This document shows positions 17,483-34,724 of a DNA stretch of 64,000 bases, in pieces. Position numbers and translations under genes: made by a program. A model generated the notes under the pieces. That model did no database searches. It was given only the letters and a program-made list of their open reading frames with translations, and had not been told where the DNA came from. The stretch is taken from positions 1-64,000 of the forward strand of contig JBEULP010000071.1 in assembly GCA_041287245.1 (NCBI GenBank), written 5' to 3'. This DNA comes from Infirmifilum sp. (GTDB taxonomy: Archaea > Thermoproteota > Thermoprotei > Thermofilales > Thermofilaceae). Positions within the stretch are counted from its first letter, which is position 1, and each line of letters starts with the position of its first letter.

Positions 17483-18130
17483 TTAGAGATAGGAATCCAG
17501 CGTGTGCTGTCCAACCCTCCCTTCTCCTTTTATAATTCTAGTTATCTCCCGGAAATCCGCTTCCAACACTGATCTTATCCTAGGATTATAGAGCGCTGCT
17601 GCAGGGTGCAAGGTGGGAAAAATCTTAACCTCCCCCCAGCTCGCGTTAAATCTAAACGTTTTACCTCTAACACTCATTATCGCCTCCGTTTTATAGCCGT
17701 ATAAGCCTAGAATCGTACGCGTACTGTGCCTTCCTAGCGTGACTATAACCCTTGGTTTTATGATCTCAAGCTGTTGTTGTAAGAATGGCAGACATGCTTG
17801 AATCTCGTCTTCAAGCGGATCCCTGTTCTCCGGCGGCCGACACTTCACTACATTCGTTATGAACACGCTTTCGCGTTGAATGCCATTGGTTGTTAATAGC
17901 TGTGTTAGGAGCTGACCTGCCGCGCCGACGAAGGGCCTGCCCTGCAAGTCCTCGTTTTGCCCCGGAGCCTCGCCTATAAGCACAACATGTTGACAAGGAT
18001 CCCCCTCGCCTGGGACAGTCTTTGTCCTGGTTTGATGGAGTGGGCAACGGGTGCACCTGTTGATTTCCTCGGCTATCGCGGCGAGTTTTTTCCTTATCTC
18101 GTCGCATTCACTCGACGAGGAGCTCTGCAT
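17483..18130 (-). CDS. udg: Uracil-DNA glycosylase family 4 (Fe-S)
   Basis: CTRCPL, GEAPG, GRPFVGAAG, TNVVKCRPP, HPAA. Start ATG 18130 preferred. Confidence 0.95.
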   Translation of the reverse strand: MQSSSSSECDEIRKKLAAIAEEINRCTRCPLHQTRTKTVPGEGDPCQHVVLIGEAPGQNEDLQGRPFVGAAGQLLTQLLTTNGIQRESVFITNVVKCRPPENRDPLEDEIQACLPFLQQQLEIIKPRVIVTLGRHSTRTILGLYGYKTEAIMSVRGKTFRFNASWGEVKIFPTLHPAAALYNPRIRSVLEADFREITRIIKGEGRVGQHTLDSYL

Positions 18131-18512
18131 GCTCTCTCCCCACACGGAGGATAGCCTTGTCCCCTGTCTTAAGCAGGTTAAGAGCCTCTTCACCTATCCT
18201 AGTCATCGAGGTTACCCCGCCAATTATACAGCCTATTATAACAACCTCATCAGGCTTAACAGTAACAATGCCTGCTGGCGCTACGCCACGCCTAGCCATC
18301 CGGAGTATGACGTATGAGCCGACAGTACTACCCTTAGAGTGGGGTAAAATGAGTATTTTCCCTTTAAGCCTTGTTCCTCTTAGCGCATGACCTGGTTCAA
18401 CGACCTCCGAGGTTGAAGGGTCAACACCGCCGTAGAAAGTTAAAGGTTGTGGCGATACTACGAGCTCGCCGACCACTTCACCCTCAGTGATCGGGGAACC
18501 CCTGAACCTCAC
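18108..18512 (-). CDS. Aconitase X small subunit (DUF126), probable phosphomevalonate dehydratase small subunit
   Basis: TFYGGVDP and KGSTVGS; coupled to the DUF521 gene. Confidence 0.88.
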   Translation of the reverse strand: MRFRGSPITEGEVVGELVVSPQPLTFYGGVDPSTSEVVEPGHALRGTRLKGKILILPHSKGSTVGSYVILRMARRGVAPAGIVTVKPDEVVIIGCIIGGVTSMTRIGEEALNLLKTGDKAILRVGREHAELLVE

Positions 18513-19702
18513 GCTTCACCACCGAAAGCATAATCCAGAGCTCTTTGCCTGGGCATCAGTGTAACATCATAGCCCTGTGCTTTCAGGTAGAAAGCAGCTT
18601 TTCCAGAATCTGTGACGATACTGGTCCCGGCATATCTCGACAGAGGAGAGACAACCATACAGGTATCCGCGAATACATGAACGTTCTTCTCCTTAAGCTT
18701 AGGGATAACCCCTCTGACACTCTCATAAACAGTTCTGCTGGTGTAAAGGAAAACTTTGTGTTTGGCCGCCCCCCTTTCGTTAACCAGCCTTAGAATGTCT
18801 ATTATTTCCTCTATGGAGAGGTGTGGACATCCCAAAACAACGGTGGCTTCACCACCGCCAAGGTATGCTTCGCGGACTTCACGCAGCATCCCAGCGTCCA
18901 CCTTTACAGTCTCAACCCCTACAACCTGGGGCTTTTCAGGGGAAACATTCTCGATTAGAACAAGTCCTGTACCTCCGGAGGCACCGGCGGCTGCTAGGAA
19001 AAGCTTTATCTCGCTAGTTCTCCCTGGTGTCAGCTCTAACCCCCTTACAAGCGGAACTTTTTCGCCTGAAAGAGAGCCTACGAGGAGCCCAGCCGCGGAA
19101 TATGCACTTTCCGCTTCAATTGTTCTTCCAATATCCGAAAAGTCAATCACCAGCTGGGGAATACGATTAGCTTCGAGGTGAAGACCTGCAAGAGGGGCTC
19201 TTCCAACTACTGCTTCGAAGAGTGCTAGTGGTCCTCCATCCCGGTTTGTCCTAGCACCGATAACACTGTTTGCGTAGAGCACAGCATTACTCTCAGACCA
19301 AGCCAGGTGATCCCCGTAATGGATGTCCCCGTATAGATATGGTGTACATGTAAGGGTTGGTTTAACACCTAGAGCCGATAAAGCCTCTATAATCCTCATT
19401 TGCTTCTTGTAGAAATCGCTGTCTATACCCATAAACATCCAGTTACCTGTATCAAACCCTGCAGGGTTCATCGTGGTAGGTACGCTCACCCGGGCACCTT
19501 TCCTGGCAAGCTCTTCTAAAAATTCTAACCCCTCATCTCCTATGTTCTTGTAAGAAATACCTGAAACATGAGCATTTTTAATCCTTACTAGTCTCTCAGC
19601 CCCGAGGGCCTCTGCTACGCGTACGACAGACTTCATAGCTAGTGCTAACGCCTCTCCAAATTCGCCATTAAGCATCTTCTCCTCTTCAGGATCTAAGTAC
19701 AT
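18509..19702 (-). CDS. Aconitase X large subunit (DUF521), probable phosphomevalonate dehydratase large subunit
   Basis: AHVSGISY, TCTPY, WSESNA, LGCPH, DTCMVVSP, TDSGKAAFY. Confidence 0.9.
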   Translation of the reverse strand: MYLDPEEEKMLNGEFGEALALAMKSVVRVAEALGAERLVRIKNAHVSGISYKNIGDEGLEFLEELARKGARVSVPTTMNPAGFDTGNWMFMGIDSDFYKKQMRIIEALSALGVKPTLTCTPYLYGDIHYGDHLAWSESNAVLYANSVIGARTNRDGGPLALFEAVVGRAPLAGLHLEANRIPQLVIDFSDIGRTIEAESAYSAAGLLVGSLSGEKVPLVRGLELTPGRTSEIKLFLAAAGASGGTGLVLIENVSPEKPQVVGVETVKVDAGMLREVREAYLGGGEATVVLGCPHLSIEEIIDILRLVNERGAAKHKVFLYTSRTVYESVRGVIPKLKEKNVHVFADTCMVVSPLSRYAGTSIVTDSGKAAFYLKAQGYDVTLMPRQRALDYAFGGEA

Positions 19703-19830: not shown

Positions 19831-22593
19831 ATGAATATTCGTAAAATACTAGTGATAGCCTTTGTCTTCCTATTTGTAAATAGTTATATTGCACAGCAAA
19901 CACCCTTCTCTTGGGCTAGCACTAGACTGAGCTTCGACGGCTTCGAGATTCTAAGCGTTGCCGTCAGCCCCTCAGGAAAATATATTGCCGTGATCTATGG
20001 CGATAAGGCATACTATACACGTACGCTTAAGGTTTATGATGCGAATCTGACATTGGTATACACGGCGCAACTTAACAGTTTTAGTGACGTAGCACTCATA
20101 TTTCTAAACGATACGGCATGTATTATTTCGGAGTATGTTTGGAACTCTCAGGTGCCATTCTCCTATATACGTTTGTTAAATATAGAGTCGGGTAGGCTTT
20201 TAACCTCTTCTAGAATCCCCGGCACCTATCTCAAGGACCTCAAGAAAGCCATAGTTGTTGGTAAAACCCTATACGTGCTCACACGCGGATACCTTTTAGG
20301 CTTTGATGCAAGTAACCTCACAAAGAGGACATACATTAAAGCTTTCATAAATCAAGGCTTACAAATCATCCCCGTCAGCGACGCACTCGTCGTGCTATCG
20401 ATAGAGACTAACTGCCACATTTGCCTTGAGATGAAGGAGAAGACTATTACTGTCCTAGACTCCCGTGGAGAGAGGTCCCTTACCCTGTGTCACGTTGTTG
20501 CACTGGTCGGACTCCCCAACGAGAGCATAGGAATTCTTTTTGACAACAACACGATTTCCAGGTATGTCCTTGTGAACGGCAACCTTGAAAGCAGGGGGAA
20601 TATCCAATCGCTCTTGGGCGGGGGTGCAGCCTCAGAGCCCCTCTACAAGCTAGTTTATTCGTTGGATATAAAAGGGGTGGATGTCAGCCTTCTCATCTAT
20701 AATGCGACCGGAAACAAGCTGAAACTTTACCACTTGCCCCTACCCTATACAAAGGGCGACCAAGTTGGTGTGAAAGTAGGCGATGACGGTTATTTTGTGG
20801 CGTGGAGTAATGACACGATTGTCATTGGAAGTCCTTCTGGATTTAACGGGACGATTAAGCTGGGAAAAAGAGTTCAAGATGTATTCTACGGAGGGGGCAG
20901 GGTTTTTGCTGTGTCTTCAGATGGGATTACTATCTTCGAGAGAAAAAACCTTGAAAATATCTTTACATTCACAGTGGATGTAGCGTCCGAAGACGGGTCA
21001 TACATTAATAATTACACCCTTATTTTAAACGGAGAGAGAAAAAACATTAATAACTCATCTATGACCCTGCTACTCCCTCAGGGAATCTACAACGTAACAA
21101 TAGATGCTCCTGGACACGTCCCCAGCTCTTTTACAGTTAACTTAACCAGTAATACGAGAAAAACCATACTACTGCAAAAGTTACGTTACCCCTTGATCGT
21201 TCATGCTTCAACAACGACTGGCGAGTCTCCCGAGATAATCGTCTATAGGACGAATATTCCAATTGTCCGCGGAGTGGGTGTTATAGAGGTAAATCTCCTT
21301 CCCGGGAATTATACCCTTGTGGTCTCTCAAGGAAACATTAGTCGAATGTTACAGGTATCCCTGTTTAACAGGACTGAAATCCATCTTCTTTTAAATACCT
21401 CATTGATTTCGCCCTCAATGAGCAATTCTTCAAGCAGCATAAAACCTTCTCAGCCTAACACCACCCAGTACGTCATAATATACGGAGAACAGACCTGTCC
21501 GGACTGCAGGCAAACAAAAGAAATCCTCCAGAACATGGTAGGCAATATCTATTTCAAGGATATCAGCAATCAGACCTATTTAAGTGAGTACAACCTCCTA
21601 TACCAGTTTTGTGGGGCTGGAAACTTGAGAGTTGTTCCTCTAACCCTAGTTTTTAGAGGCACTAACTTACAAGCAGTAGTTGCAGGCACACTACCCGTAG
21701 ATCAATGGCGTCAAATATTAAGTCTCAACGTTAACAACGGAACCCTTATCGTTACCGACACCGGAGAGCGGAGATATAGGAGAATAAATTCAACAAAGGT
21801 CTATGAGGTTGCCGTGACAGGCCTGAGGACGCCTGTTAGCACAACCGGGCACAAGGAAAACTTGGTGCCGCTCATACTGGCGCTGGCCGCAGCAGACTCT
21901 ATAAACCCATGTACATTTATGGTCTTCGCAGCCTTAATTATGGCGATAATGGGCTTTGCGGGTAGAAGGAAAGCAATTGAAGCCTCTATAGCCTTTATTG
22001 CCGCGGTCTTCGCCTCGTATATTATTCTAGGGTTGGGCCTAATTAGGTTTGCAGCCATCTTTGCGTGGCTCAAATACGTGATAGCCGCCGTTTCTCTCGT
22101 AGCCGGTCTTTACACGACCTCTACGGCGATCGTAAGTTATCAAGAAGGATGCCGCGAGGCCAAATCCTCAAGGGAAAATGCCAGCCCGACCCTTGGTAAA
22201 GCGTTGAATTACTACAGGAGAATAAAGGAAATAGTCGAGGAGAAAAGCCACACATTCCTCTCACAGGCTCAGAGGGGAAGTGTACTCGCATCTTTTCTGG
22301 GTGGAGTCCTAGTTAGTTTTACCCTTTTACCCTGTAGCGGTGGTCCATATCTAGTTGCCTCCTATATTCTTTCACAGGTTGATACATTTGAGGCGGCAAT
22401 CCTCCTTCTCCTCTACAACACAGTCTTCATATTGCCTCTTGTTCTCATAGCCACCGGCGTTATACTGGGCGGGAGGCTTCTCGTACTTGTTGACGTGGCT
22501 ACCGTACACCTTAACGCACTCCGCAGATGGACAGGGCTTCTACTCGGTCTCCTTCTCCTCGTTCTAGGTATTTACATATTGATTTACCGTTAA
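19831..22593 (+). CDS. Surface protein: beta-propeller-like head, Ig/PEGA-like repeats, glutaredoxin-like (CPDC) and CcdA/DsbD-like TM domain
   Basis: Signal peptide from ATG 19831; VAVSPSGKYIAV propeller motif; LPQGIY and LPGNY repeats; YGEQTCPDC...VVP; ADSINPCTF and LLPCSGGPY within six TM-like helices. Confidence 0.8.
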   Translation: MNIRKILVIAFVFLFVNSYIAQQTPFSWASTRLSFDGFEILSVAVSPSGKYIAVIYGDKAYYTRTLKVYDANLTLVYTAQLNSFSDVALIFLNDTACIISEYVWNSQVPFSYIRLLNIESGRLLTSSRIPGTYLKDLKKAIVVGKTLYVLTRGYLLGFDASNLTKRTYIKAFINQGLQIIPVSDALVVLSIETNCHICLEMKEKTITVLDSRGERSLTLCHVVALVGLPNESIGILFDNNTISRYVLVNGNLESRGNIQSLLGGGAASEPLYKLVYSLDIKGVDVSLLIYNATGNKLKLYHLPLPYTKGDQVGVKVGDDGYFVAWSNDTIVIGSPSGFNGTIKLGKRVQDVFYGGGRVFAVSSDGITIFERKNLENIFTFTVDVASEDGSYINNYTLILNGERKNINNSSMTLLLPQGIYNVTIDAPGHVPSSFTVNLTSNTRKTILLQKLRYPLIVHASTTTGESPEIIVYRTNIPIVRGVGVIEVNLLPGNYTLVVSQGNISRMLQVSLFNRTEIHLLLNTSLISPSMSNSSSSIKPSQPNTTQYVIIYGEQTCPDCRQTKEILQNMVGNIYFKDISNQTYLSEYNLLYQFCGAGNLRVVPLTLVFRGTNLQAVVAGTLPVDQWRQILSLNVNNGTLIVTDTGERRYRRINSTKVYEVAVTGLRTPVSTTGHKENLVPLILALAAADSINPCTFMVFAALIMAIMGFAGRRKAIEASIAFIAAVFASYIILGLGLIRFAAIFAWLKYVIAAVSLVAGLYTTSTAIVSYQEGCREAKSSRENASPTLGKALNYYRRIKEIVEEKSHTFLSQAQRGSVLASFLGGVLVSFTLLPCSGGPYLVASYILSQVDTFEAAILLLLYNTVFILPLVLIATGVILGGRLLVLVDVATVHLNALRRWTGLLLGLLLLVLGIYILIYR

Positions 22594-22762
22594 TGGCAGT
22601 CTCTTTCTTCTTTAGATCTATTCATATTTTCTCCGAAATGGGAAAAAGATCATTACACAAAGGCCAAGATTTTAACGTCTAAAATTCAAGTGTGAACCCA
22701 CCTATCTTTTAAGGCGAAAAATTTTAAGAATACGAGAGAGGATTGCGTTTAAAGCGATCTGC

Positions 22763-24061
22763 GTGAAAACAGAGGTCGAGCTAGGTTTTAAGAGGTGGCT
22801 TAGATCCTCGGAGACTCGAGCCTCGGCTACCATCGTCACTCCTTGCCGGGGGATTTGGATAATAAGAGCTAGGCTCCAAAGCGACGAGTACTTGTTTCCT
22901 GTTATGCCTTGTACATGTGACGAAAAGCACACTGTCAGGATAAATGGCGAGCCTTATTGCGAGGCAGAATATTGCAGCGGTTTTCTGAGAGAAATCCTAA
23001 GCTGTAACGCGATAACCGCAGAATCATTTATTGACCTTTCCGGATCTATATCTTACGACGGCGCCATTTCGGAAGACGCGACAAACCCGCATGTTCTTCT
23101 AACTATCAATGCACAGAAGTTTGTTCTGAAAGGTTATAGACTTCATACCTCTTGGAACCCTGAGCCTTTATTCCTCCGCTTCCTCTCAGGGTCGGGCCTT
23201 GTCCCTAAACTTGCCTTATCTTACTCGTTTAACGGAAGGCCCCTTGGAATATTGACTGAATACGTTCCGGGGGCGTTCGACCCTGGTGCTATTTTTTATA
23301 ATTCTCTTAAAGAAACGCTTAAAGGTGAAGATAACTTCCCACCTATTGAAGTCATTAATGGTATAGCTCGTACTATAGCAGAATTCCACAACTTGATGTT
23401 TACATGCCGTGAGGATTGGTGTTCCCCAGGGGTCGCATCGCGGAAGAACCTGGAAGAGTGGCGAGAAAGAACACTAACATACCTCACATTTCTTAGGAGG
23501 TTCACCTTTCCCGATAAAATAAAAATCGTCCTGGAGAGAAATACTGATTCGCTGTTTCAATACTTCAGCGGCACCAACATAATCGCTACGCACCAGGACC
23601 TTCATTTCTCTCAAATGCTTAGAAGCGGCGAGAATTTTTACATTGTCGACTTCGAGGGAGAGCCAGGTCGCCCTGAAAAATACCGGCGTACACTAGAGCC
23701 CGCAGTGCGAGATATGGCCACACTGCTACGGGGCCTAGCATACATAGCCTATTTCGGATTAGCCGAGGTGAATCACCTAGATAAAAATTCTACATACCTC
23801 TTCATTAAGGATGGGGGACCGCAGGTAAAACTAGCTCGAGAATGGACGAGTAATGTTAGCTTGAAACTGTTAGGTGAATATGCACGCCGCGTTAACAAGA
23901 GCCTACTCAGAAGCACTGGTGTGTCAAATATTCTCCAAGATATAGAGCCTTGGCTTTTCGAGAGAGCCCTCTATGAAGCTTTCTATGAGGCGCAATACCG
24001 CCCTGAGAATACTATTGTGGCACTTGCCACACTTGCACATGATATCCCACAACTTCTTTGA
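22763..24061 (+). CDS. Maltokinase-like phosphotransferase (APH fold)
   Basis: [37 protein letters not shown]. Confidence 0.8.
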
Positions 24062-24155
24062 AGCCACGTCGCCTTTCAATTTATTCTTTTCCGATACTCT
24101 CGCGCGACATGGGAAAGTTTTTATCATAAAACCTTATTTTATAAAAATGAGAAAA

Positions 24156-24929
24156 ATGAGTCTTATTGAAAAAATAAAAACCGGCATTCCGGGTTTTGAT
24201 GAGCTCCTCTTCGGAGGAATACCTAAGAGAAACATCGTCTTATTATCTGGGGGTCCGGGGACTGGGAAGACCATATTTTCGCAACAATATCTATACTACG
24301 GACTCTCCGTGGGCGAAACGGGAGTTCTTGTAGCCCTCGAAGAGCATCCTGTACAGATACGCCGCAATATGGCGTCTTTTGGCTGGGATGTACGAAGATT
24401 CGAAGAAGATGGAAAGTTTGCAATCGTTGACGCTTTCACGGGGGGTGTGGGCGAAGCTGCTAAGAGGGAAAGATATGTTGTAAAAAGCGTCGACGATGTT
24501 GGTGAATTGATAGATGTTGTGCGGCAGGCTATCAAAGACGTTAAGGCGGAGAGGGTGGTTATTGATTCTGTGTCAACCCTTTATTTGACTAAGCCGGCTA
24601 TGGCGCGAGGGGTTCTCATGCAACTAAAAAGAGTTTTATCGGGGCTTGGCGCCACATCCCTCTTCGTTTCACAAGTTAGTGTGACGGAAAGGGGATTTGG
24701 AGGCCCTGGTGTAGAACACGCTGTAGATGGAATTGTAAGGCTCGACCTTGATGAGGTTGACGGAGAACTTGTGAGGTCGCTTTTAATATGGAAGATGAGG
24801 GGGACTAAGCATGACATGAGAAGGAGGCCTTTCGAGATTACCGATAAGGGAATAGTTGTTTATAGCAACAAAGTTGTTAAATTGAAAGGAGTTGTATATA
24901 GAGTTGAAGAGGGGGGTTCGTATGAGTAG
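24156..24929 (+). CDS. Single-domain KaiC-like ATPase
   Basis: [30 protein letters not shown]. Start ATG 24156 (or 24147). Confidence 0.92.
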
Positions 24930-25362
24930 TGAGGTCCCTTTAAAGCCTATAGGAAAAGAAGACATTAGAAAACTTGAACTCTCTCTGATTTTAGCAACAC
25001 TCTTAAGGGTAGATGTTATCGAGGTAATACGAAATGCCGAAGACAAGCTGACGTGGCTTGACTCGCTGGTGGTGGCAGCGGGGGCTCTTGCCCGTGAAAG
25101 GGCCGGGTATTCGATCGTGAAGATAGCTGACGAACTTGGAAGAACCGAGAACACAATTCGAAACCATTTAACCGGGAAGACCGAGGCTGGAAGACTCGTA
25201 AAAGAGGCCTACGAGAGACTTGTACAAAGCGGTGGTAAACTTGAGCTTCCCGGTTATACCCACACTAGTGAGGTTGAGGAGCTGAAAAAACGTGTTGAAG
25301 AGCTTGAAAAGAAGATTGAGGGTGTTAAAAAGACTCTAGGAGAGCTTTTACAGCAGTTATAA
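24922..25362 (+). CDS. KaiC-associated HTH transcriptional regulator (COG1318-like)
   Basis: [27 protein letters not shown]-terminal coiled coil; overlaps the KaiC stop. Confidence 0.82.
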
Positions 25363-25370
25363 CGAGTGGT

Positions 25371-27011
25371 TTATTTTTTCGTCTGCATGCTGGTATATAC
25401 TTCTAAAAGCATTTCGGCTGATTTTTCCCATGTGAACAAGGTAGACACTCTGTCTATGGCGTTCTTCCTTATGATCTCACCGGCGTCGAGATACTCTTCA
25501 AGTAGAAGAACAAGGCGCGTATCGCCTATTCTACCAACATACTTATCGAGTCTACCTGTATTCGATGCTTCCATGAAGCCCAGCATATCACGCAGAGCAT
25601 CTGCCAGGTCATAGGGATTGTCTGGCTGAACGTGTAGCCCTGTACCCTTTATGCCGTGCTCATGGATATCTAGGACTGTCTCCTTTAAACCTCCTATTCG
25701 CGTTGCTACAACAGGACAGCCGGCTGCCATGGCCTCTATAGCCATTATGCCGAAGGGCTCCCACCGCGAGGGGGCAGCGAAAACATCGGCTGACAGGTGT
25801 GCAAGCTTATAGATTGAGGGGGCGGCGCCGAATACTACTCGAACATTATGAGGATATTCTCGCGAGAGCTCTATCAACATGTCGATATATCTTTCCCCGC
25901 CCCATACAGGAAGGACAAGGAAGAGTATACGCGTCTCTCCGAATTCTCTGAGCAGTATCTCTATTGATTCTGCTAAAGTGTCAAATCCTTTTTGTCTAGC
26001 TAGTCTGCCCGTTGTAATTATCAGGGGACCGTCGTGTAGGAAGGGCTCTATCTTTAAATTGTCTTTGAAGGGTGGCGCTACACGCTCAAGAATATATTTT
26101 TTCAGCTGGGGGTCAGGCACCTTTGGCTCATCCTCTGGAAGATTGTTCAGGGCGTTAAGCAATAGATATTTTCTTAGGGAGAGGCGGTTCAGGGATCCGC
26201 CAAAGGCTTCTCTTATTTTTAGACCGTGAAGCGCATCCACCTCTTTTAAGAGATCCGCATAGTTCCAGTCTGTACCGTTATATACGAAGGCACCTCGCTT
26301 TAAAACATCTTCACCCAAGCTTGCTCGAAGATCCTCCTGCAAATATGACCTGCTCACGGTCACCAGCCGATCGGCCTCCGCCAAGCCAAGTTTTTCTGCT
26401 ACTCCATCTACAGCTGTAAAGACTTCGCTAAGGGTAGTCCAATAACTCTTCCCATTCAGGTATATCCGGTGAACCCAATCTCTCTTCAACCCTGCCGCTT
26501 CTAATAGCTGAAAGTCTAGCTTTCGCCGAATAAGCAGATGCACATGGTATACTAAGAGAGGCTTGTCTTCATCCTTTCTCTGCTCCTTGGCTTTCAACAG
26601 CTGCAGTATTGAATGCCAGTCGTGGAAGTGCATGATGTCAGGATTATTGAGCCCGAGTTCCTCGGATAACGAGAGAAGCTGACCGAATGCTATAGAAAAG
26701 TCGACTATTTTCTCAATCAAGGTGTCTTCAGAGTATACACGGGGGTCGTCGAGTATTTTGCTGTGAATCCTTAAAAAAGTGACACCTTTATAGTTAATCT
26801 TCTCGAAAGTGTATCTCCTCTCATTTACGCCTGACTCGACGACTTCAGCTGTAGGCTCTAGCCTAGCTGTATGTGATGGCATGATTATTGTCGAAGAAAC
26901 ACCCCTTTTAACAAGAGAGAGCGAGAGATTTGTTGGTACCTCTGCGAGACCCCCAACCTTTGTAAAGGGAGCCGCCTCAAAAGTTATCATCCATACTCCA
27001 TTTAAAGCCAA
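25371..27011 (-). CDS. glgA: Glycogen/starch synthase (GT5)
   Basis: KVGGLAE, HFHDWH, GRLARQKG, PSRWEPFG. Confidence 0.92.
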   Translation of the reverse strand: MALNGVWMITFEAAPFTKVGGLAEVPTNLSLSLVKRGVSSTIIMPSHTARLEPTAEVVESGVNERRYTFEKINYKGVTFLRIHSKILDDPRVYSEDTLIEKIVDFSIAFGQLLSLSEELGLNNPDIMHFHDWHSILQLLKAKEQRKDEDKPLLVYHVHLLIRRKLDFQLLEAAGLKRDWVHRIYLNGKSYWTTLSEVFTAVDGVAEKLGLAEADRLVTVSRSYLQEDLRASLGEDVLKRGAFVYNGTDWNYADLLKEVDALHGLKIREAFGGSLNRLSLRKYLLLNALNNLPEDEPKVPDPQLKKYILERVAPPFKDNLKIEPFLHDGPLIITTGRLARQKGFDTLAESIEILLREFGETRILFLVLPVWGGERYIDMLIELSREYPHNVRVVFGAAPSIYKLAHLSADVFAAPSRWEPFGIMAIEAMAAGCPVVATRIGGLKETVLDIHEHGIKGTGLHVQPDNPYDLADALRDMLGFMEASNTGRLDKYVGRIGDTRLVLLLEEYLDAGEIIRKNAIDRVSTLFTWEKSAEMLLEVYTSMQTKK

Positions 27012-28930
27012 CGAACAACCACCTGGGTTTCAAAGAGTTCGCCTGGATTAAGAGTTAAATAATGATTAAACGCTATGCCAATTCCCTGAAGCTCGCGTTT
27101 AAGACCCTTTTCCGTTCTAGACACCGTTTCAATTGGTGCAACCCATACTTCGGCATGCTTCTGGTTCTCGATTATAACCTCGGGTCCACCCTTCGACTTT
27201 ACACGAATAGTCCTAGACCACGGACTCTCAAATCTTTCTGTAAAGCTTCTTTCGGAGAATTCATCCACTGTATACATTGGTAGGACATCCTCCTCATATG
27301 ATAATCTCGGCATGATAGACAGTTCAATAGAGACTCTAGGGTCGACGAAACGTTTCTCCATGTTCCTCCAAGTATACTTCACTTTCAACGTCTTACCCTC
27401 ATCCCAAACCTCAAACGTTTTCGTTAAATGTATTCTGGATGGCTGGGTTCGCACGCTCCAGTCACGCCCCATCGCAGACAAAACGACTTTGTTCTCACCG
27501 GCATACTCAACGAGATAGCCCTTGAGAGCCAGGTCGCTAACATCTACAAACGGCGTATTTTCAATCCAATCCTTTAGCCTTGTATCCCGCCGCCAGATAT
27601 GCTCTCTAAATGAGACCCTACGGTACCAGTCGGGGTTGTACTCTTTTACTCCTTCGAGGTATGATTCAGGATATCTTGACATTGTATTTATAAGGTTGTG
27701 CTCGAGCCCCTCCTCTTTCAAGTCAAGCTCGAACAGAGACCCGCCATCTCCGGGTTTTATATAGAAATTAGCCCTAGGAGCCTCCAATAGAATCTCGTTT
27801 TGTCCATCAAAGTCGAAGTCGCTTTCGCTTATCTTCAAGCCATCCATAAAATACAAGGCCTTGGTCTCAGCGAGCCTTTCAGCCCTTATCAGGTTTTCAT
27901 AGACTGCCTGCCTTAACACGGGTATGTAGGTGCCGCCGAAAAGTCCATGCCAATAAGCGTCGTTGCATTGTGCAAGGTAATAATTCGTCCAGGCTTCCTC
28001 CGGTGCATCAAGCCTCACAAGCTTCTCACGAACGTAGAGCATTTTTTTATGCATATTATTCGACTCACGATACTTTCTCAGAAAGTTGGGGAAATATCCG
28101 CCGCTCCACTCCACCATCTTGTCATAGCTCCACGGGCCAAGATAAGCCAGACCTGTATAGCCAAAACGGCGAAGATACTCACTGGGCGTTATAGTCTGTA
28201 CCTCACTACTCTCCCGTAGATATGTAAAGAAAATCCGAAGCCATGGTTCCGCGTTTTCCCTTGGCCACCACTCCCCGAATTTTTCAGCGTCACTCCCCCA
28301 TAAAACATACTTGTTTCCATTTGGGGTCGCGAAGCTCCTGATATACTCTAACACTTCTCCATGCGTCTTCCAGGGGAGTATATATCTAATCGTTGTATCG
28401 ATAAAGAGTACGCCTACCCGGCGACCCCCATATTCGGTAATGACGGCAGTGTGAGTATCATCCTTCCACAAGCCAGACTTGTAGCCCACCTCATCGTCTA
28501 GGATAACGTAGGAGTACCCTGTGTCTCTAATAGCTACAGGAAGGGTAGGATCCCACACTCTCTCGGCAAGCCAAAGGCCCTTAGGTGTAACCCCTAGTAG
28601 TTCCTCAACAAGCTTTCTGCCACGCTTAAGTTGTGCAAAACGATCCTCCTGAGGGAGGAGGGCTAGAACGCTCTCCGAAAATGTTCCTCCTATAACCTCA
28701 AACCGGCTATTCTGGACAATGTTTTTCAGCCTTTCAAGATAATCAGGATAGTACTCATGCCAGTAGCGGAGCAAAGGCCCGCTGAAGTGCAAGGTAAGGG
28801 GTAGCTCACGAAACTGTGAGAAGAGACTGAGAAGCATCTCGTATGAGTTTCGCTGAATACGGTCAAGGATGCTTTTCTTCTGCCCTACAGGTTGATGGAA
28901 ATGTAGGATAAAAATGAAGCTTGACTTCAC
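27002..28930 (-). CDS. GH57 4-alpha-glucanotransferase/alpha-amylase
   Basis: HFHQP, WLAERVW, DAEKFG, AQCNDAYWHGLFGG. Confidence 0.92.
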   Translation of the reverse strand: MKSSFIFILHFHQPVGQKKSILDRIQRNSYEMLLSLFSQFRELPLTLHFSGPLLRYWHEYYPDYLERLKNIVQNSRFEVIGGTFSESVLALLPQEDRFAQLKRGRKLVEELLGVTPKGLWLAERVWDPTLPVAIRDTGYSYVILDDEVGYKSGLWKDDTHTAVITEYGGRRVGVLFIDTTIRYILPWKTHGEVLEYIRSFATPNGNKYVLWGSDAEKFGEWWPRENAEPWLRIFFTYLRESSEVQTITPSEYLRRFGYTGLAYLGPWSYDKMVEWSGGYFPNFLRKYRESNNMHKKMLYVREKLVRLDAPEEAWTNYYLAQCNDAYWHGLFGGTYIPVLRQAVYENLIRAERLAETKALYFMDGLKISESDFDFDGQNEILLEAPRANFYIKPGDGGSLFELDLKEEGLEHNLINTMSRYPESYLEGVKEYNPDWYRRVSFREHIWRRDTRLKDWIENTPFVDVSDLALKGYLVEYAGENKVVLSAMGRDWSVRTQPSRIHLTKTFEVWDEGKTLKVKYTWRNMEKRFVDPRVSIELSIMPRLSYEEDVLPMYTVDEFSERSFTERFESPWSRTIRVKSKGGPEVIIENQKHAEVWVAPIETVSRTEKGLKRELQGIGIAFNHYLTLNPGELFETQVVVRWL

Positions 28931-29247
28931 ATTAACGCAAGGGTTGAAGGTTTATGATAAATATTTCCTCGAAAGCACGCGGAGAAGACCCGCTCCAGAG
29001 AAATATAACCTTGCGAAAAACCTCTTATGCTTCAGGCTTCTTGCTTTGCTCTACAGCCTTGTAGACGACTATAAGCCCTTTAAGCCTGTCCCTAACCCCC
29101 TTCCCATTAGCAGGGAGCTCCTAATGAAGACTATCCAAAGGCTCCAAGGTCAAGGTAGGCTCACTATGCCTCGAAAAATTAGAAAATCCCCAGGTAGATT
29201 TGGGCGAATAAACCACTTTGGCTAAAGATATTACAATGAGGAGGTAG

Positions 29248-29350
29248 AGCCCCGGCCGGGAGTTGAACCCGGGACCTTCGGCTTTCTCGAAGCCCCCTTT
29301 TCCTTTATGAATTACGAGGCCGACGCTCCACCAGTCTGAGCTACCGGGGC
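29248..29350 (-). tRNA. tRNA-Thr(CGT) with 29-nt canonical 37/38 intron (29284-29312); no encoded CCA
   Basis: Reverse complement folds as a cloverleaf; BHB motif CTCG/CGAG with TA^A and AA^A bulges. Confidence 0.95.
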
Positions 29351-29442
29351 TACACGTGTTAAGTATGTTTTTCGAGGTGTTTTAAACTTTACGAGCCCTT
29401 GAAAAAGGGACTGCTAAACAAAAAGGGAAGAAGTTGGGGCAG

Positions 29443-29535
29443 TGCCCCGGCCGGGATTTGAACCCGGGATCTACGGCTCGAGAGGCCGTTATCCTTTCAG
29501 CCTTGTGCAGGTTGACCGGGCTAGACGACCGGGGC
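29443..29535 (-). tRNA. tRNA-Glu(CTC) with ~17-nt D-loop intron (about 29496-29512); no encoded CCA
   Basis: Anticodon arm ACGGC-CTCTCGA-GCCGT. Removing ACCTGCACAAGGCTGAA restores the D-loop AGCCCGGTCAA. Confidence 0.92.
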
Positions 29536-29653
29536 TCCTTGGTAATGTGAACTGCATCTCTTTATTAATTTTTCCTGCGGGAACCTAGTCATTTTTATAA
29601 AGCTGGAGGGTAATGTTTACGCGTCAATATATGGCGTGTCTGGTGTCTAAGAT

Positions 29654-30925
29654 ATGTCTAAGATTAGAATGTTAGCGTTGTCCGACGTACACGGCAAAGA
29701 GGATATAGTTGATAGGTTTATCGAGTGGGTTAGAAGCGATAGTGTCTCATACGATGTTATTATAGCGGCAGGGGATATCGGAAACCCGCAGAGACCGGGG
29801 AGTATGTGTAGGATCCTTGGAAAAATCCAGAAGTTATTACAGAAACCCGTATACTACGTTAAGGGTAATTGGGACATCGAGGAGGATTGTAAAGCCCCAC
29901 AGCTTTTCAACCTGGACGCGACTGGCCCCGTCTACTTCAACGATATAGCTATTGTAGGCCATGGGAGACGCGCAGAACCTTTTAAACTTGAGAGACAGCC
30001 AAGAGTCATAGTCTTGGTAACCCATTATCCTCCGTTCAGCATTCTAGATAAGGGTAAGGTTATAGACAGTTATCATCACTCGCTACACGCAGGGGTAGTT
30101 GAGATAAACTATCTCATCGACTACTACCGGCCGCATGTACACATTTTTGGACACAGCCACAGTTTCGGCGGGTTAGAGGTTGAACATAATGGAACCATTT
30201 ACGTGAACGTTGCTAGGCTTGATCGGCTTTTAAAATCTGGAGAGCCCATTGGAAACTACGCAATAATTGATGTCTCCAGCTCAGGCGAGGTAAAGATTGA
30301 GTGGAGGTTTATAAACGGCGTCTGGAAAAAATGCTCCGGCTGCGGCAGGATTGTACACATACCTGAGAAATGGTCACTTTGTAGAAAGTGTGCTCACAAG
30401 GCAGACATAAAATTTGCAAAAGTTTCAGGAGTGCCGTACAGGGCTGTACTTATCTTCCGCGATGCGGTCACGGGCAATACGATCACCAGGAAGGAAATAC
30501 GAATCCCATTCTACACTCTGAAAGACAACGTTACTCTAGACGACTTTATAGACTTGATTGTCACCCGAGCTTTCAGGGAGTCATTTGCAGGTGATAAAAC
30601 AAGGATGCTCGAGATCCCGAAGGACAAGGTTATAGAGTTCTACGGCAACAAACGGGGTAATCCTCTGACACCTTTTAGCGAGTATCTCTTTTCCTGTGAC
30701 AATAGAATAGGAGAAGAAAGGCTATGTCTCTTAATGCGGGTTTTCTCTCAGGATAAAAGAGCCCATGTGTTTTGGAGAATAGAAGAATCCAGTCCTTCTT
30801 CCTTTATGATCGACGACGAGTTTATACTTTTCAAGGAGGGAGCAATAGTTCCCGAGTCCCATTTGATTAAACAATTATCAAGCATTGGTTTTAAGACAGT
30901 CTCCTACATGATAGAGGCGATATAA
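29654..30925 (+). CDS. Calcineurin-like metallophosphoesterase with Zn-ribbon and C-terminal extension
   Basis: SDVHG, AGDIG, KGNWD, THYPP, GHSH; then CSGC...CRKC. Confidence 0.85.
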   Translation: MSKIRMLALSDVHGKEDIVDRFIEWVRSDSVSYDVIIAAGDIGNPQRPGSMCRILGKIQKLLQKPVYYVKGNWDIEEDCKAPQLFNLDATGPVYFNDIAIVGHGRRAEPFKLERQPRVIVLVTHYPPFSILDKGKVIDSYHHSLHAGVVEINYLIDYYRPHVHIFGHSHSFGGLEVEHNGTIYVNVARLDRLLKSGEPIGNYAIIDVSSSGEVKIEWRFINGVWKKCSGCGRIVHIPEKWSLCRKCAHKADIKFAKVSGVPYRAVLIFRDAVTGNTITRKEIRIPFYTLKDNVTLDDFIDLIVTRAFRESFAGDKTRMLEIPKDKVIEFYGNKRGNPLTPFSEYLFSCDNRIGEERLCLLMRVFSQDKRAHVFWRIEESSPSSFMIDDEFILFKEGAIVPESHLIKQLSSIGFKTVSYMIEAI

Positions 30926-31615
30926 TTGCAGCTTTTCTGGCGCGAAGTATATAGAAAGGTTATTCACCTGGCGCTTACAGCTCTTCTCGTTCTTCCTTAT
31001 TTTGTTACACTTCCATCACCTTTAAATATATACAATTACTACTCCCTTGGTCTTCTGGCTGCTTCGGTGATCAACAGCTTTGTTGTGAAACGTTTTAAGC
31101 TTGAATTAGAGCTAAACACGCTTAAGGGCGAGTTACACCGCTTTGCTGATAGTCTCGGCGAAAAAGCTAGGATGCCTCTTTCGATAATAGAAGACGCTAT
31201 TGAAGAATTTCACAGCTTCATTGAAAAACAGCTTTCTTTGCTCGAGCGGGATTATGAGAAGCGAGAAGGCTATGTTGGCCTTCTCTACGGGATGATCGGT
31301 GCGACGAGTAGTCTGCTCCTAGACCCTCTTCACGCTTTTTATGGAGTTACAGCACTAGCAGTAGTAGATGTTACTGCTTCCCTCTCCAGCCTCATACTAT
31401 GGAAAAGGGGGAAAAGCCTTGGTGGAGAAATCATAGCCTTCGGAACTTACACATTATTTCTAGGGTTAATGGGGGTGCCTCTTCCGCAGGGCATGACTTC
31501 CGCATTGCTTGTAACGCTAACAGAGTACTTCTCCCCTGAGGACAATCTGACCGTTCCGGTTGTTGCAACTGTAGTGTCATCATTGTTGGGGCTGCCAGCA
31601 ATATCTCCAAGCTGA
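30926..31615 (+). CDS. Dolichol/phytol kinase (CTP-transferase) family membrane protein
   Basis: EVYRKVIH, D..ASL, KSLGG, EDNLTVP. Confidence 0.72.
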   Translation: MQLFWREVYRKVIHLALTALLVLPYFVTLPSPLNIYNYYSLGLLAASVINSFVVKRFKLELELNTLKGELHRFADSLGEKARMPLSIIEDAIEEFHSFIEKQLSLLERDYEKREGYVGLLYGMIGATSSLLLDPLHAFYGVTALAVVDVTASLSSLILWKRGKSLGGEIIAFGTYTLFLGLMGVPLPQGMTSALLVTLTEYFSPEDNLTVPVVATVVSSLLGLPAISPS

Positions 31616-31626
31616 TTCGTTGATCA

Positions 31627-34284
31627 TTAAATAAACCCGTAAAACCGCTCTTCGTCTGATTCTAGGGTTTCTTCTGAAGTCTCTTCACGACCCATGTCCT
31701 CGTTTAATGTTAGGGCTTCAGCATTATCACCACGTAAGCTATAACCGAGAGAATAAACATCGCTACTATAAAAACTGAGACTATTCTCTTCCTCCTCTCC
31801 TTTTTTCCTGGCATTTACACCACCTGGAATTAAGGCGACCATAATTAGAAGAACCCCGGTTAATATTAACGTTACTGGTATAGCATTCTCCCCTAAGACC
31901 GCAGCGAGCGGTAAGGATGTTATGTTGAAGAGTGAGGAGACCTTGTTTTTAGCTTCTTCGATCTCTTTAGCTGCCCCGACCCCCATAAAAAACAGTGTCC
32001 CGTTTTTGACGACGAGAATTGTTGGAAAACTCGTCGCATTTACCCGGTTTGATATGCCCTGCTCATCCTTCCCAAGATACCATGAGACGTTGTTTTCTAT
32101 CGAGTACCTGCGCAGTACCTCCGGGGTATCGGAGGGTGATACACTTAGAGACACAACAATAGTGTCGTTACGTTGCGAAAGCATTCGGAGGGCTGGAAGC
32201 ATGTACTTACACCCGGTGCACTGGGTGTAGAAAAGTTCGATTACGAGTATTTTACTCCGGGAAGCCTCTAGAAGATCCAGCTCACTTCCCCCCACCACGG
32301 TTATTGATCCAAGGTCGAGGTGAACGCTCATGTTCCTACTTATGAGAGTTTGATTCTTTAGATAGCGTAGCACCTCACTCAGAAAATCTTTTTTAGCATT
32401 CTGTAATCTCTGACATGAATACCTGACGGGAAATACCCTTAGACCCTCACTCCACTGTATGAGTGTCGCGTTTAACCTACAATCATAGCCTTCTGGAGTT
32501 TGAGCTATCGATATTTGATAAACGCCCGCCTGGAGAGTCCTCCGCACCGGGGACGACGAGTTGACTTCTACTGTTATCGGTTGAGACTGTTCATCAATTT
32601 TTTTGATTATTAGCCTACCCGAGGAGTTGTCTGAAGATGTTACCACAAGGTCAAAGGTGAATTTTTTTAAAGTGATGTTAAGGCTTACACCTCTGTCCAC
32701 TAGCGTTACATTACGCCTCGCTGGCTGATAGAGAGGCGCCTCGACGGTGATCGTGTAGTTTCCCCTTACAGCTTCGAGAAAGACCCTACCTTCGGATGAT
32801 GCTGAAAGCGTGTAGGACTCAGGACCCATAATAACAATCCTAGCCCCTGGAAGCGGCTTGCCATTCTCATCGTATATTGTGATGTTTAGAGGAAATCTCT
32901 TCGGGGGTTCTTTGGACATTACGACCGTTGCGTATAAAACAGGTTGGTTTAGTTGAAGAACGAGTCGGTTTTCAGAGTAGCCCGGTTTGAGTACGCGAAC
33001 AGTATAGTTACCGATGGGTAAGGTACCTGTGGCCCAACCACTGGAGTTTGTTTTTAATGTGAGGCCCTTGGAGTCTGAGGAGATCTCTACAGTGGCGTTG
33101 TGTATTGGATTGCCATCACTGGTGACGACTTTCAGGTACAAGACAGACCTAAATAAAGGGTATACTACGACAAGCCGGTTGCTCCCGTAAATGGCGGCTC
33201 GTAGAGAGGCAGAGGCTTTTACTGTGGTGGGATCGAAGGGAACAGTAGTCCAGTTAATTTGGTACTTGCCTTGGAGTACTGGCGTATTCTTGTAGTCCAC
33301 GGAGTACAGAGAGACGTCGCCAACTGTGAATAAGACCATTTGAGTGTCGGTGAATAAGCTCATGCAACGTCGAGTCGGAACTGAGTAAACGCTGGTGCAC
33401 TGCAGGCCAGTGCTGCACTTGGTTACGGTCCCGTCACTGAAAACGATGATGAAGCCGTCTTGCAAAGGCGTTATTTGCTGAATAGCTTGGAGCTTCGCCG
33501 AAGCCCTAATCTGTAGTTGAGGCAGTGTGAGGACATAAGTAGTGTGTAGCCCGTTGTCATCTACTCTTACCTGCTGGGCTAAAATAAACCCATAGCCTAG
33601 AGCCTTTACTGTTAAGCCTGTCTGTAGGGATGCAATCTTGTTAACCCCTAAGCTCGAGACGCTGTAAACCTCTATCTTATTGTCTGTTAACTGGCAGAGC
33701 TCGCAGAGCGTGTCTATTGTCTCGGCGACAAGGTAGTTCTGGTAGAAGTCCAGCGAAAATATTTTTACTAGGACATCCTGGGAATTCACGTCCCTTTCAA
33801 AGATACGGCTTCGCTTTACCAGGTCGACAACTACGAGCCTGTCTAGCTTTACGTTATTCACCGTGTATGCTATGCTTAGAGCGAGGAATCTTCCATCTGA
33901 GCTTAATGCGGCACGTGATATAGAGAGCTCGTCACTCTTCGTTGTTGCCTTGAGAGAATATAAAGTCTGGAGAGAAGACGAGTTTAAGACTAGTATAAGC
34001 CCAGACACATCTACTAGCACGAGTGTCGAGCCATTGTAGAAAAAACCCGCCACGTTTAGGGACAGCGGAGTTATCATTCGTGAATAGACGCTGCCTTCAC
34101 CAAAGTCTATTAGAGAGGCTGTCCCATTGGTGAAGGCCACGTAAACTCTGTTTCCAGCCGGAATGAAGTCTCCGATGGGCGTTTTAAAATCTAGCACAGC
34201 AACATTGTAAACTGGGGCTGAGAGAGCCAGGGGTACGGTTAACAGGAACAATGAGAAGAGAACTAGTATTTTACTCATTTTCAT
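31627..34284 (-). CDS. Surface protein: beta-propeller-like head, carboxypeptidase-regulatory repeats, TlpA/thioredoxin-like domain, TM anchor
   Basis: Signal peptide; LSSDGRFLAL; LPIGNY, VRGNY and LQAGVY repeats; ELFYTQCTGC...SFPT; TM helix and acidic tail. Confidence 0.8.
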   Translation of the reverse strand: MKMSKILVLFSLFLLTVPLALSAPVYNVAVLDFKTPIGDFIPAGNRVYVAFTNGTASLIDFGEGSVYSRMITPLSLNVAGFFYNGSTLVLVDVSGLILVLNSSSLQTLYSLKATTKSDELSISRAALSSDGRFLALSIAYTVNNVKLDRLVVVDLVKRSRIFERDVNSQDVLVKIFSLDFYQNYLVAETIDTLCELCQLTDNKIEVYSVSSLGVNKIASLQTGLTVKALGYGFILAQQVRVDDNGLHTTYVLTLPQLQIRASAKLQAIQQITPLQDGFIIVFSDGTVTKCSTGLQCTSVYSVPTRRCMSLFTDTQMVLFTVGDVSLYSVDYKNTPVLQGKYQINWTTVPFDPTTVKASASLRAAIYGSNRLVVVYPLFRSVLYLKVVTSDGNPIHNATVEISSDSKGLTLKTNSSGWATGTLPIGNYTVRVLKPGYSENRLVLQLNQPVLYATVVMSKEPPKRFPLNITIYDENGKPLPGARIVIMGPESYTLSASSEGRVFLEAVRGNYTITVEAPLYQPARRNVTLVDRGVSLNITLKKFTFDLVVTSSDNSSGRLIIKKIDEQSQPITVEVNSSSPVRRTLQAGVYQISIAQTPEGYDCRLNATLIQWSEGLRVFPVRYSCQRLQNAKKDFLSEVLRYLKNQTLISRNMSVHLDLGSITVVGGSELDLLEASRSKILVIELFYTQCTGCKYMLPALRMLSQRNDTIVVSLSVSPSDTPEVLRRYSIENNVSWYLGKDEQGISNRVNATSFPTILVVKNGTLFFMGVGAAKEIEEAKNKVSSLFNITSLPLAAVLGENAIPVTLILTGVLLIMVALIPGGVNARKKGEEEENSLSFYSSDVYSLGYSLRGDNAEALTLNEDMGREETSEETLESDEERFYGFI

Positions 34285-34724
34285 TCTGTCTCCTTTAACA
34301 GTAATTTTACAGGTATCTCATTCAGGGTCTGAACAAGAATAGTTATTCCCGTAAGCTTATCCTCAGAGGATAGAGTGGTAGTTAGTTTGTAGAGAATCTC
34401 CCGAATACGTAGGAGAGCTTCTAGAGATTCTTTTTGCGATTCGATAGTCTCTTCTAAAACATTCAACTCGTCTACAGCCCTGGCGTTAATAACAACTTTT
34501 AGTCCCATATAATCTATCTCGTTTAGAGAGGAAAGCTTCTCGCCTAGCAGATCCTCCAGAACCTTCTCAAGCGCCTTCATGCGCTCTGCTCGAACCCTTA
34601 CGCTTTCATATCTCTGCTCGAGCTGCTGTAAAGTATCCTGGATAGTCGCGATTTGCGCTTCAACGTATTTTAGTAGCTCTTCAACGCTATTAAACTGGTA
34701 TATGTTGTACGACACATGCCTCAA
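34281..34724 (-). CDS. Hypothetical coiled-coil/beta-hairpin protein
   Basis: 147 aa, helix-hairpin-helix organisation; 4-bp overlap with the downstream gene. Confidence 0.75.
   Translation of the reverse strand: MRHVSYNIYQFNSVEELLKYVEAQIATIQDTLQQLEQRYESVRVRAERMKALEKVLEDLLGEKLSSLNEIDYMGLKVVINARAVDELNVLEETIESQKESLEALLRIREILYKLTTTLSSEDKLTGITILVQTLNEIPVKLLLKETE

Follow-up and report, generated by a model that had tools for sequence, protein, structure and literature searches.

In DsbD, electrons pass from a membrane domain (beta) to a thioredoxin-like domain (gamma) and from there to a non-thioredoxin domain (alpha), which hands them to CcmG or DsbC; in ScsB an unrelated alpha domain feeds TlpA, and free alpha domains occur beside CcdA, as set out in the available part of one account (PMC3322552). 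Beta-propellers are also joined to thiol-redox domains in SOQ1 and DsbI, where the cysteine pair is not placed on the propeller in the accessible portions of the reports (bioRxiv 10.1101/2021.03.16.435614, PMC8614926, PMC4460558). Here, we analyze a window of 64,000 nucleotides (NCBI GenBank assembly GCA_041287245.1, contig JBEULP010000071.1, positions 1 to 64,000 of the forward strand) from Infirmifilum sp., an archaeon of the Thermofilaceae, order Thermofilales, and in it two genes, A and B, which encode stalked proteins, predicted to be at the cell surface, whose predicted beta-propeller heads themselves carry a CxxC motif. A and B together may form a surface, DsbD-like relay that exports electrons with protein disulfides as its end target, a reading to which we give a probability of about 0.45. 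An outward relay with a redox-active head, whether it ends at protein disulfides or at small sulfur compounds, is probable. In it, a CxxC-bearing eight-bladed propeller would take the place of the DsbD alpha domain.

Extracytoplasmic disulfide handling in anaerobic hyperthermophilic archaea is poorly known, and CcdA has no obvious client in cells without cytochrome c. The classic clients of CcdA are missing here: cytochrome c assembly (PF01578) is found in one of 41 Thermofilales genomes and not in this one, and MsrA was not found in this genome. A first-pass annotation of the window had described the two open reading frames (ORFs) as sharing a signal peptide, a propeller-like region, repeats, a thioredoxin-fold domain and a membrane anchor, and both are present as described:

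19831-22593, + strand: gene A, 920 residues, with signal peptide, CxxC propeller, two stalk repeats, flexible linker, glutaredoxin-like domain and six-helix CcdA-like domain
19831-19902, + strand: predicted signal peptide of A, from its basic start and hydrophobic core
19906-20958, + strand: head of A, 350 residues, a predicted eight-bladed beta-propeller (predicted local distance difference test score, pLDDT, 94; predicted template modelling score, pTM, 0.90)
20413-20424, + strand: CxxC of head A, Cys195/Cys198, where the sole helix starts, within the blade 4 b-c loop
20959-21402, + strand: stalk of A, two PEGA/CarboxypepD_reg-like sandwich repeats (stalk-stalk profile match 97.9%)
21403-21462, + strand: Ser/Pro-rich linker of A, about 20 residues, a possible hinge judging from its sequence
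21463-21840, + strand: glutaredoxin-like domain of A, with CPDC (21496-21507; residues 556-559) and invariant Pro603
21862-22590, + strand: six-helix CcdA-like membrane domain of A, with Pro-Cys at 21907-21912 (helix 1) and 22330-22335 (helix 4)
31627-34284, - strand: gene B, 885 residues, with signal peptide, CxxC propeller, three stalk repeats, TlpA-like domain, one membrane helix and acidic tail
33151-34218, - strand: head of B, a predicted eight-bladed beta-propeller (pLDDT 95, pTM 0.90)
33694-33705, - strand: CxxC of head B, Cys194/Cys197, within the blade 4 b-c loop, surrounded by conserved D165, L172, F176, D191, D201 and G223
32407-33150, - strand: stalk of B, three CarboxypepD_reg-type repeats (PF13620 above cut-off)
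31930-32322, - strand: TlpA/ResA-like thioredoxin fold of B, with CTGC (32209-32220; residues 689-692) and the cis-Pro-type motif SFPT
31819-31884, - strand: C-terminal membrane anchor of B, from sequence and homologues

Met 19831 is favored as the start of A, most homologues beginning near it, and the longer start given by the ORF finder (19735) is unsupported. The repeats number two in A and three in B by reading the sequence, as the earlier count of two or three per protein had it; they are sandwiches of the CarboxypepD_reg/PEGA type, not the immunoglobulin-like domains first supposed, and the A stalk, which matches both types, is free of cysteine. The motifs had been quoted correctly: the glutaredoxin-like CPDC of A is followed by two Pro-Cys motifs in its membrane domain (INPC, Pro-Cys 693-694; LLPC, Pro-Cys 834-835), the TlpA-like domain of B has CTGC, and the heads share a similar motif, ETNCHIC in A and DTLCELC in B.

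Pairwise BLAST of head A against head B is not significant (best E-value 0.075), and neither is the match of shallow head profiles (18%). With deep profiles the match rises to 97.6% across 316 columns and the two CxxC motifs align in register, and on this profile evidence the heads are homologous, as their motifs had suggested. The head alignments comprise 27 A-type and 28 B-type rows gathered from the 41 Thermofilales genomes; seven of the rows, which had no match to the first head profiles, were taken in on motif and architecture, and seven stalk-bearing ORFs with neither a head match nor a CxxC were excluded.

The heads, first described as beta-propeller-like, are both modeled by AlphaFold with high confidence (pLDDT 94-95, pTM 0.90), and strand counts in the models give each of them eight blades closed by an N-terminal strand. 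In both models the loop that joins strands b and c of blade 4 holds the CxxC, which is at the one helix of the head or immediately ahead of it. A comparable arrangement of CxxC at a helix forms the thioredoxin active site, and a disulfide between residues three apart adds little stability. In the usual propeller convention the b-c loop of a blade and the C-terminal exit are on opposite faces, and by this blade topology the modeled CxxC would face away from the exit of the stalk. Structure searches with the heads return generic WD40/BamB-type propellers with tied scores, and no specific enzyme family stands out; BamB is one of many tied matches (Z 23.1, root-mean-square deviation 3.8, 309 aligned). 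Matches in the ESM Atlas are generic propellers and, in addition, one unnamed cluster of Thermoproteota proteins whose stalks are of CarboxypepD_reg type. Any one Pfam family covers at most 6 of the 28 B heads and at most 3 of the 27 A heads; PQQ_2 matches 6 and 1 of them, respectively. Heme c binding by the heads was considered and rejected, as the motifs read CHIC-L and CELC-Q with no CxxCH and the genome has no maturation system.

Conservation of the head CxxC, on which the proposal of an active cysteine pair depends, is borne out. At 11-57% identity the two cysteines are the sole invariant residues of the A-type heads (27/27), and in the B heads they are invariant together with Gly223 (28/28), the best-conserved residues of B lying around the motif in blades 3-5, in both strands and loops. 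Paired cysteines recur in the B heads and stalks. Cysteine pairs other than the CxxC vary in occurrence among homologues. Since row selection could inflate invariance within the alignments, a check was made by a search of 1.84 billion representatives, in which 147 new proteins were examined and 32 passed a span filter. All 26 relatives that span the motif keep the CxxC, nine of them at 22-45% identity (under 50%) to any training row; the rest of the 32 are one fragment that starts past the motif and five weak generic propellers without CxxC. T-x-CxxC occurs anywhere in three of the other 115 repeat proteins. In shuffled heads of the two proteins, [DE]T-x-CxxC arises 0 and 9 times per 20,000, and by a stricter pattern the A/B pair is unique among the 9,254 six-frame ORFs of the genome. 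None of the seven other stalk-bearing ORFs of this genome has a CxxC, and every long stalked protein recovered with a thioredoxin-fold fusion and a head has one.

The glutaredoxin domain of A falls below the Pfam and NCBIfam cut-offs; archaeal glutaredoxins are closest to it, the best PDB match is glutaredoxin 5CAX (E-value 7e-7), and C556, C559 and P603 are invariant in all 26 rows. The TlpA domain of B scores above the PF00085 cut-off and keeps its CxxC in 27 of 27 rows and a cis-Pro-type motif in 26, with one off register. The membrane domain of A is CcdA-like by its anatomy, that is by motifs, topology and one weak structure match, and is not a certified family member. By hydropathy only, a 26-row alignment shows six hydrophobic segments in it, helices 1, 3 and 5 each being followed by a basic loop, which agrees with both ends lying outside; the Pro-Cys of helices 1 and 4 is invariant in all rows. 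The only PDB match of the domain is CcdA of T. thermophilus (5VKV), weak at an E-value of 0.037, with the second motif aligned. The genome also contains a second, canonical CcdA (L147:1483-2709, contig label G000:C29), which is above the cut-off for Pfam DsbD, has an extra membrane extension and lies directly downstream of a secreted multi-sandwich protein; the CcdA-like domain of A matches it with 24 bits.

Sequons for N-glycosylation number 23 in A and 21 in B, the 99th percentile of 789 ORFs. They run through both thioredoxin-fold domains (three in the glutaredoxin domain and five in the TlpA domain), with hardly any in the membrane part or the B tail, a distribution consistent with thioredoxin-fold domains outside the cell. 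Together with the six-helix, N-out hydropathy, the sequons predict that both domains are extracellular, as had been assumed, and not cytoplasmic.

Of the 41 Thermofilales genomes, 30 have a strong A head (E-value <=4e-25) and 27 a strong B head. An A head accompanies the B head in every one of these 27, among kin that are not independent; three genomes have A only and 11 have neither. Three weak sole matches (E-values 4e-7 to 5e-6) were left uncounted, and the head profiles were built from these same genomes. In a phylum-wide sample of 401 Thermoproteota genomes, the 383 outside Thermofilales contain no true heads: the head A profile has no matches there, and two short matches of the head B profile were rejected as PQQ-type propellers without CxxC.

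The heads are found in four architectures. In type A (head, stalk, glutaredoxin, CcdA), present in four genera of the family of this genome, all modules lie in one chain; type A' (head, stalk, anchor) comprises 15 stand-alone genes, the glutaredoxin-CcdA part generally being a separate gene of about 400 residues with a signal peptide; type B consists of head, stalk, TlpA and anchor; and type C (head, stalk, hairpin, TlpA, CcdA), found in two genomes, has a CcdA-like domain from another subfamily. Of the two type C genomes, one has a stand-alone glutaredoxin-CcdA gene with in-frame stops (L019:1501-2790, genome G002) and in the other, 85% complete, no such gene was found, two cases that fit a replacement of the stand-alone gene by the type C fusion. 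In a quick head tree the B heads group together (support 91), one fused A head falls among unfused ones (96) and the backbone does not resolve. From this grouping of a fused head with unfused ones, the head-glutaredoxin-CcdA fusion has probably been gained or lost more than once, in a number of events that the quick tree does not fix. The CcdA-like profile matches 36 of the 41 genomes, including those of four families (f3, f5, f6 and f7) without a strong head, which suggests that the heads are an accessory to a more widespread conduit. A thioredoxin reductase gene lies directly upstream of stand-alone glutaredoxin-CcdA in 4 of 17 loci, all in one family. The genome studied here has PDO, a thioredoxin reductase-like gene below the family cut-off and an NrfD-type membrane anchor. 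As further observations on these genes, the stand-alone glutaredoxin-CcdA gene is present as a tandem duplicate at L029 (G021) and L030 (G020), and genome G002 carries a second B-like gene (L117:1396-3873) whose C-terminus runs into a multi-helix membrane region.

In the proposed relay, cytoplasmic thioredoxin reductase and PDO or thioredoxin would reduce the two membrane cysteines of the CcdA-like domain of A (beta), which would pass electrons to the glutaredoxin of A outside (gamma) and through it to the propeller CxxC (alpha). The hinged stalk would carry this CxxC between the membrane and targets about 8-12 nm out, and head A could reduce the TlpA domain of B, which would recharge head B; this last step is drawn by analogy with the reduction of CcmG by DsbD alpha and of TlpA by ScsB. 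The most likely end use would be to reduce or reshuffle incorrect disulfides, and cysteines modified by sulfur, on the glycoproteins of the surface. Read as a set, A would be an alpha-gamma-beta protein, A' a free alpha, and B a TlpA client with a terminal head of its own. The domains, motifs, conservation, head homology, fusions and distribution on which the relay is built are computed, and the fold and outside topology are predicted. From these we infer the arrival of electrons at the head, the redox activity of its CxxC, the direction, the order of steps, the motion of the hinge and the substrate. The first-pass annotation had proposed a flow from CcdA through glutaredoxin or TlpA to a distal CxxC; of this, a reductive relay is supported by the repeated fusion of heads to thioredoxin-fold and CcdA-like modules, in three kinds, and by the upstream thioredoxin reductase gene.

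Several points weigh against this reading. The invariance within the alignments comes partly from selection, seven rows having been admitted on motif and architecture. If the models place the CxxC correctly, opposite the stalk, a head could be reached by its own glutaredoxin or TlpA domain only if the stalk folds back, and B is without an obvious flexible linker. Pfam DsbD matches none of the 26 CcdA-like members, and SfLAP matches eight. Glutaredoxin-CcdA also occurs in head-less families and so has other clients, and head A is present without B in three genomes. An operon or shared neighborhood of A and B was rejected: the two genes lie on opposite strands, facing each other with 9 kb between them, they are separated by 10-36 kb in genera g1 and g8, and elsewhere the distance is about 67-76 kb or the genes are on other contigs. 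Co-occurrence in related genomes is not independent evidence. The second, canonical CcdA could feed B independently of A. The step from head A to the TlpA domain of B is the weakest, because of this second CcdA and because the geometry requires the stalk to fold back. Finally, an isomerase would normally oppose an oxidizing system, yet VKOR was found in none of the 41 genomes and DsbB (PF02600) in none of the six searched.

The alternative that survives best keeps the same outward relay and gives the heads extracellular small molecules to reduce (polysulfide or S0, cystine, or disulfide-linked peptides or cofactors from other archaea), for nutrition or electron disposal. We consider it unlikely, although all of the relay evidence applies to it equally and the conserved residues of B cluster in the loops round the CxxC as in a binding site. 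Thiol relays fed by NADPH conserve no energy, the NrfD-type anchor suggests a conventional polysulfide-type reductase, and no transporter or sulfur gene recurs within 1.5-5 kb flanks of A and B. As far as the available part of one report goes, sulfur serves T. pendens as an acceptor, and growth of Thermofilaceae depends on lipid fractions or broth from other Crenarchaeota (PMC4673724), which fits small-molecule targets. For a sulfur-specific or partner-cell-specific target, both listed among the first suggestions, no evidence was found.

Rather less likely is a metal site (Zn, Cu or Fe), formed by the head CxxC alone with nearby His and Glu or shared between A and B, whose ligands the glutaredoxin/TlpA-CcdA modules would only maintain in the reduced state, the part that CcmG plays for apocytochrome. 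Metal or heme sites are often the targets of TlpA-type domains, A and B co-occur, and the loops near the CxxC of A carry His221 in 19 of 27 heads and Glu203 in 18; however, the other eight A heads are without the histidine, B has Gly-Leu in its place, no CxxCH is present, and metal-transport genes do not recur in the flanks of A and B.

We are more skeptical still of a chain that runs inward, in which the heads would oxidize newly secreted proteins and send the electrons through glutaredoxin and CcdA to the cytoplasm in place of DsbA/DsbB and VKOR. VKOR and DsbB were not found in the genomes searched, yet paired cysteines recur in B heads and stalks, which agrees with it; secreted 14- and 20-Cys proteins flank glutaredoxin-CcdA in two genomes, and S-layer proteins related to a Cys-rich Pyrobaculum SLP are proposed for Thermofilales in the accessible part of a preprint (bioRxiv 10.64898/2026.08.21.746120). 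In opposition, the CcdA, DsbD and ScsB proteins characterized in the available part of the account cited above (PMC3322552) export electrons, the thioredoxin reductase neighbor in four loci points to a source of reductant, and ambient sulfur could presumably oxidize thiols without enzymes. The two small secreted proteins (20-Cys, L019:2818-3279, G002; 14-Cys, L023:558-1028, G006) adjoin stand-alone glutaredoxin-CcdA genes, have no NCBIfam match and are possible disulfide-rich clients.

An adhesive or scaffolding role for the heads, with the disulfide small and structural and the redox domains fused to them for co-location only and serving other clients, is improbable: fold searches find only generic propellers, these genomes encode many stalked surface proteins and glutaredoxin-CcdA also occurs without heads, but just these two cysteines are invariant where other pairs come and go, and no recovered long thioredoxin-fold fusion with a head lacks them.

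Around the two genes, a 147-residue coiled-coil gene (34281-34724 of the window, - strand) lies directly upstream of B and adjoins B in 25 genomes, with no family match above cut-off. An aconitase X pair (18108-19702 of the window, - strand) is divergent from A, and its large subunit adjoins A or A' in 11 genomes, probably as plain synteny. Between A and B are a maltokinase-like gene and genes that we take to be glycogen-type and KaiC-like. The named homologues of A and B come from Infirmifilum and carry the annotations hypothetical, thioredoxin-domain or carboxypeptidase-regulatory-like. In the single-contig genome G034 the B gene (L040:281-2850) is broken into two frames near residues 441-456, which may be a sequencing error or a natural frameshift. 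The tail of B is overlapped by a further conserved reading frame:

31710-31814, - strand: ORF of a 34-residue single-helix microprotein over the B tail, in the +1 frame

This ORF has a basic start, one hydrophobic helix and a G-rich, ribosome-binding-like site ahead of it, and it has no Pfam match. It is found at 13 of 27 other B loci by a strict filter and at 16 by profile, and in two genomes it hardly overlaps B; in a control over the shared range it scored at 9 of 27 B loci versus 1 of 708 other gene ends.

It is possible, if doubtful, that A and B provide the principal thiol chemistry at the cell surface in an archaeal order lacking DsbB, VKOR and cytochrome c maturation, as a new class of redox propeller enzymes on a swinging stalk that either runs CcdA inward to form envelope disulfides or delivers cytoplasmic electrons to polysulfide or to compounds of neighboring archaea. 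If true, such delivery to neighbors' compounds could bear on the need of Thermofilaceae for the broth of other archaea. The unnamed CxxC propeller family with its three thioredoxin/CcdA arrangements offers an order-wide candidate with testable cysteines. Should the head be the terminal module, it would add a further type of alpha domain to the DsbD superfamily, possibly a thermostable disulfide reductase or isomerase. Infirmifilum isolates with complete genomes exist, and with confidently folding domains they make in vitro tests direct.

In the literature searched, with subscription papers and supplements outside its scope, no description of the A and B proteins was found. SBP56, or methanethiol oxidase, is a CxxC beta-propeller with seven blades, a different motif and no known link to CcdA, and the identity was rejected for the heads, none of the 55 matching Pfam SBP56 at an E-value of 0.01. 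Unlike the TlpA partners of CcmG type, B occurs in a genome without cytochrome c maturation. The remaining comparisons follow the available parts of the published accounts. With DsbD and ScsB (PMC3322552), A shares a two-Cys membrane domain, an outside thioredoxin fold and a non-thioredoxin Cys-pair domain in one chain, and the set shares split forms with a free alpha and, as downstream of ScsB, a TlpA. In contrast, the order in A is alpha-gamma-beta (head-stalk-glutaredoxin-membrane) rather than alpha-beta-gamma, its beta domain has six helices and not eight, its gamma is glutaredoxin-like, and its putative alpha is a stalked eight-bladed CxxC propeller rather than of the Ig-like or ScsB type; A and B have no matches to alpha-domain families. 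SOQ1 and NHLRC2 (bioRxiv 10.1101/2021.03.16.435614; PMC8614926) likewise combine a membrane-anchored extracytoplasmic thioredoxin fold with a beta-propeller and a beta-sandwich, but theirs is a six-bladed NHL propeller packed on the thioredoxin domain, the redox partner being a C-terminal n-DsbD-like domain, whereas the propellers of A and B have eight blades, bear the CxxC themselves and are separated by a stalk, with an NHL match in none of the 55 heads. DsbI of Epsilonproteobacteria (PMC4460558) joins a thiol-redox domain in the membrane to a beta-propeller in the periplasm whose role is unassigned; it is, however, an oxidative protein of the DsbB family with its CxxC in the membrane part, and DsbB was not found in the six genomes searched here. 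Membership of A and B in DsbD/ScsB, SOQ1, DsbI or SBP56 thus fails on the defining features. The CcdA-eTrx-MsrAB and PilB systems (PMC12288474) resemble A and B in that an anaerobe combines CcdA with an exported thioredoxin fold and a cysteine module at the end, as fusions or in clusters; unlike them, A and B have an unnamed propeller as terminal module, in a genome where MsrA was not found. A and B are a real system, restricted to Thermofilales, whose proposed logic is that of DsbD/ScsB and of CcdA-thioredoxin-Msr, and what is new in it is the stalked CxxC propeller as its putative end-piece.

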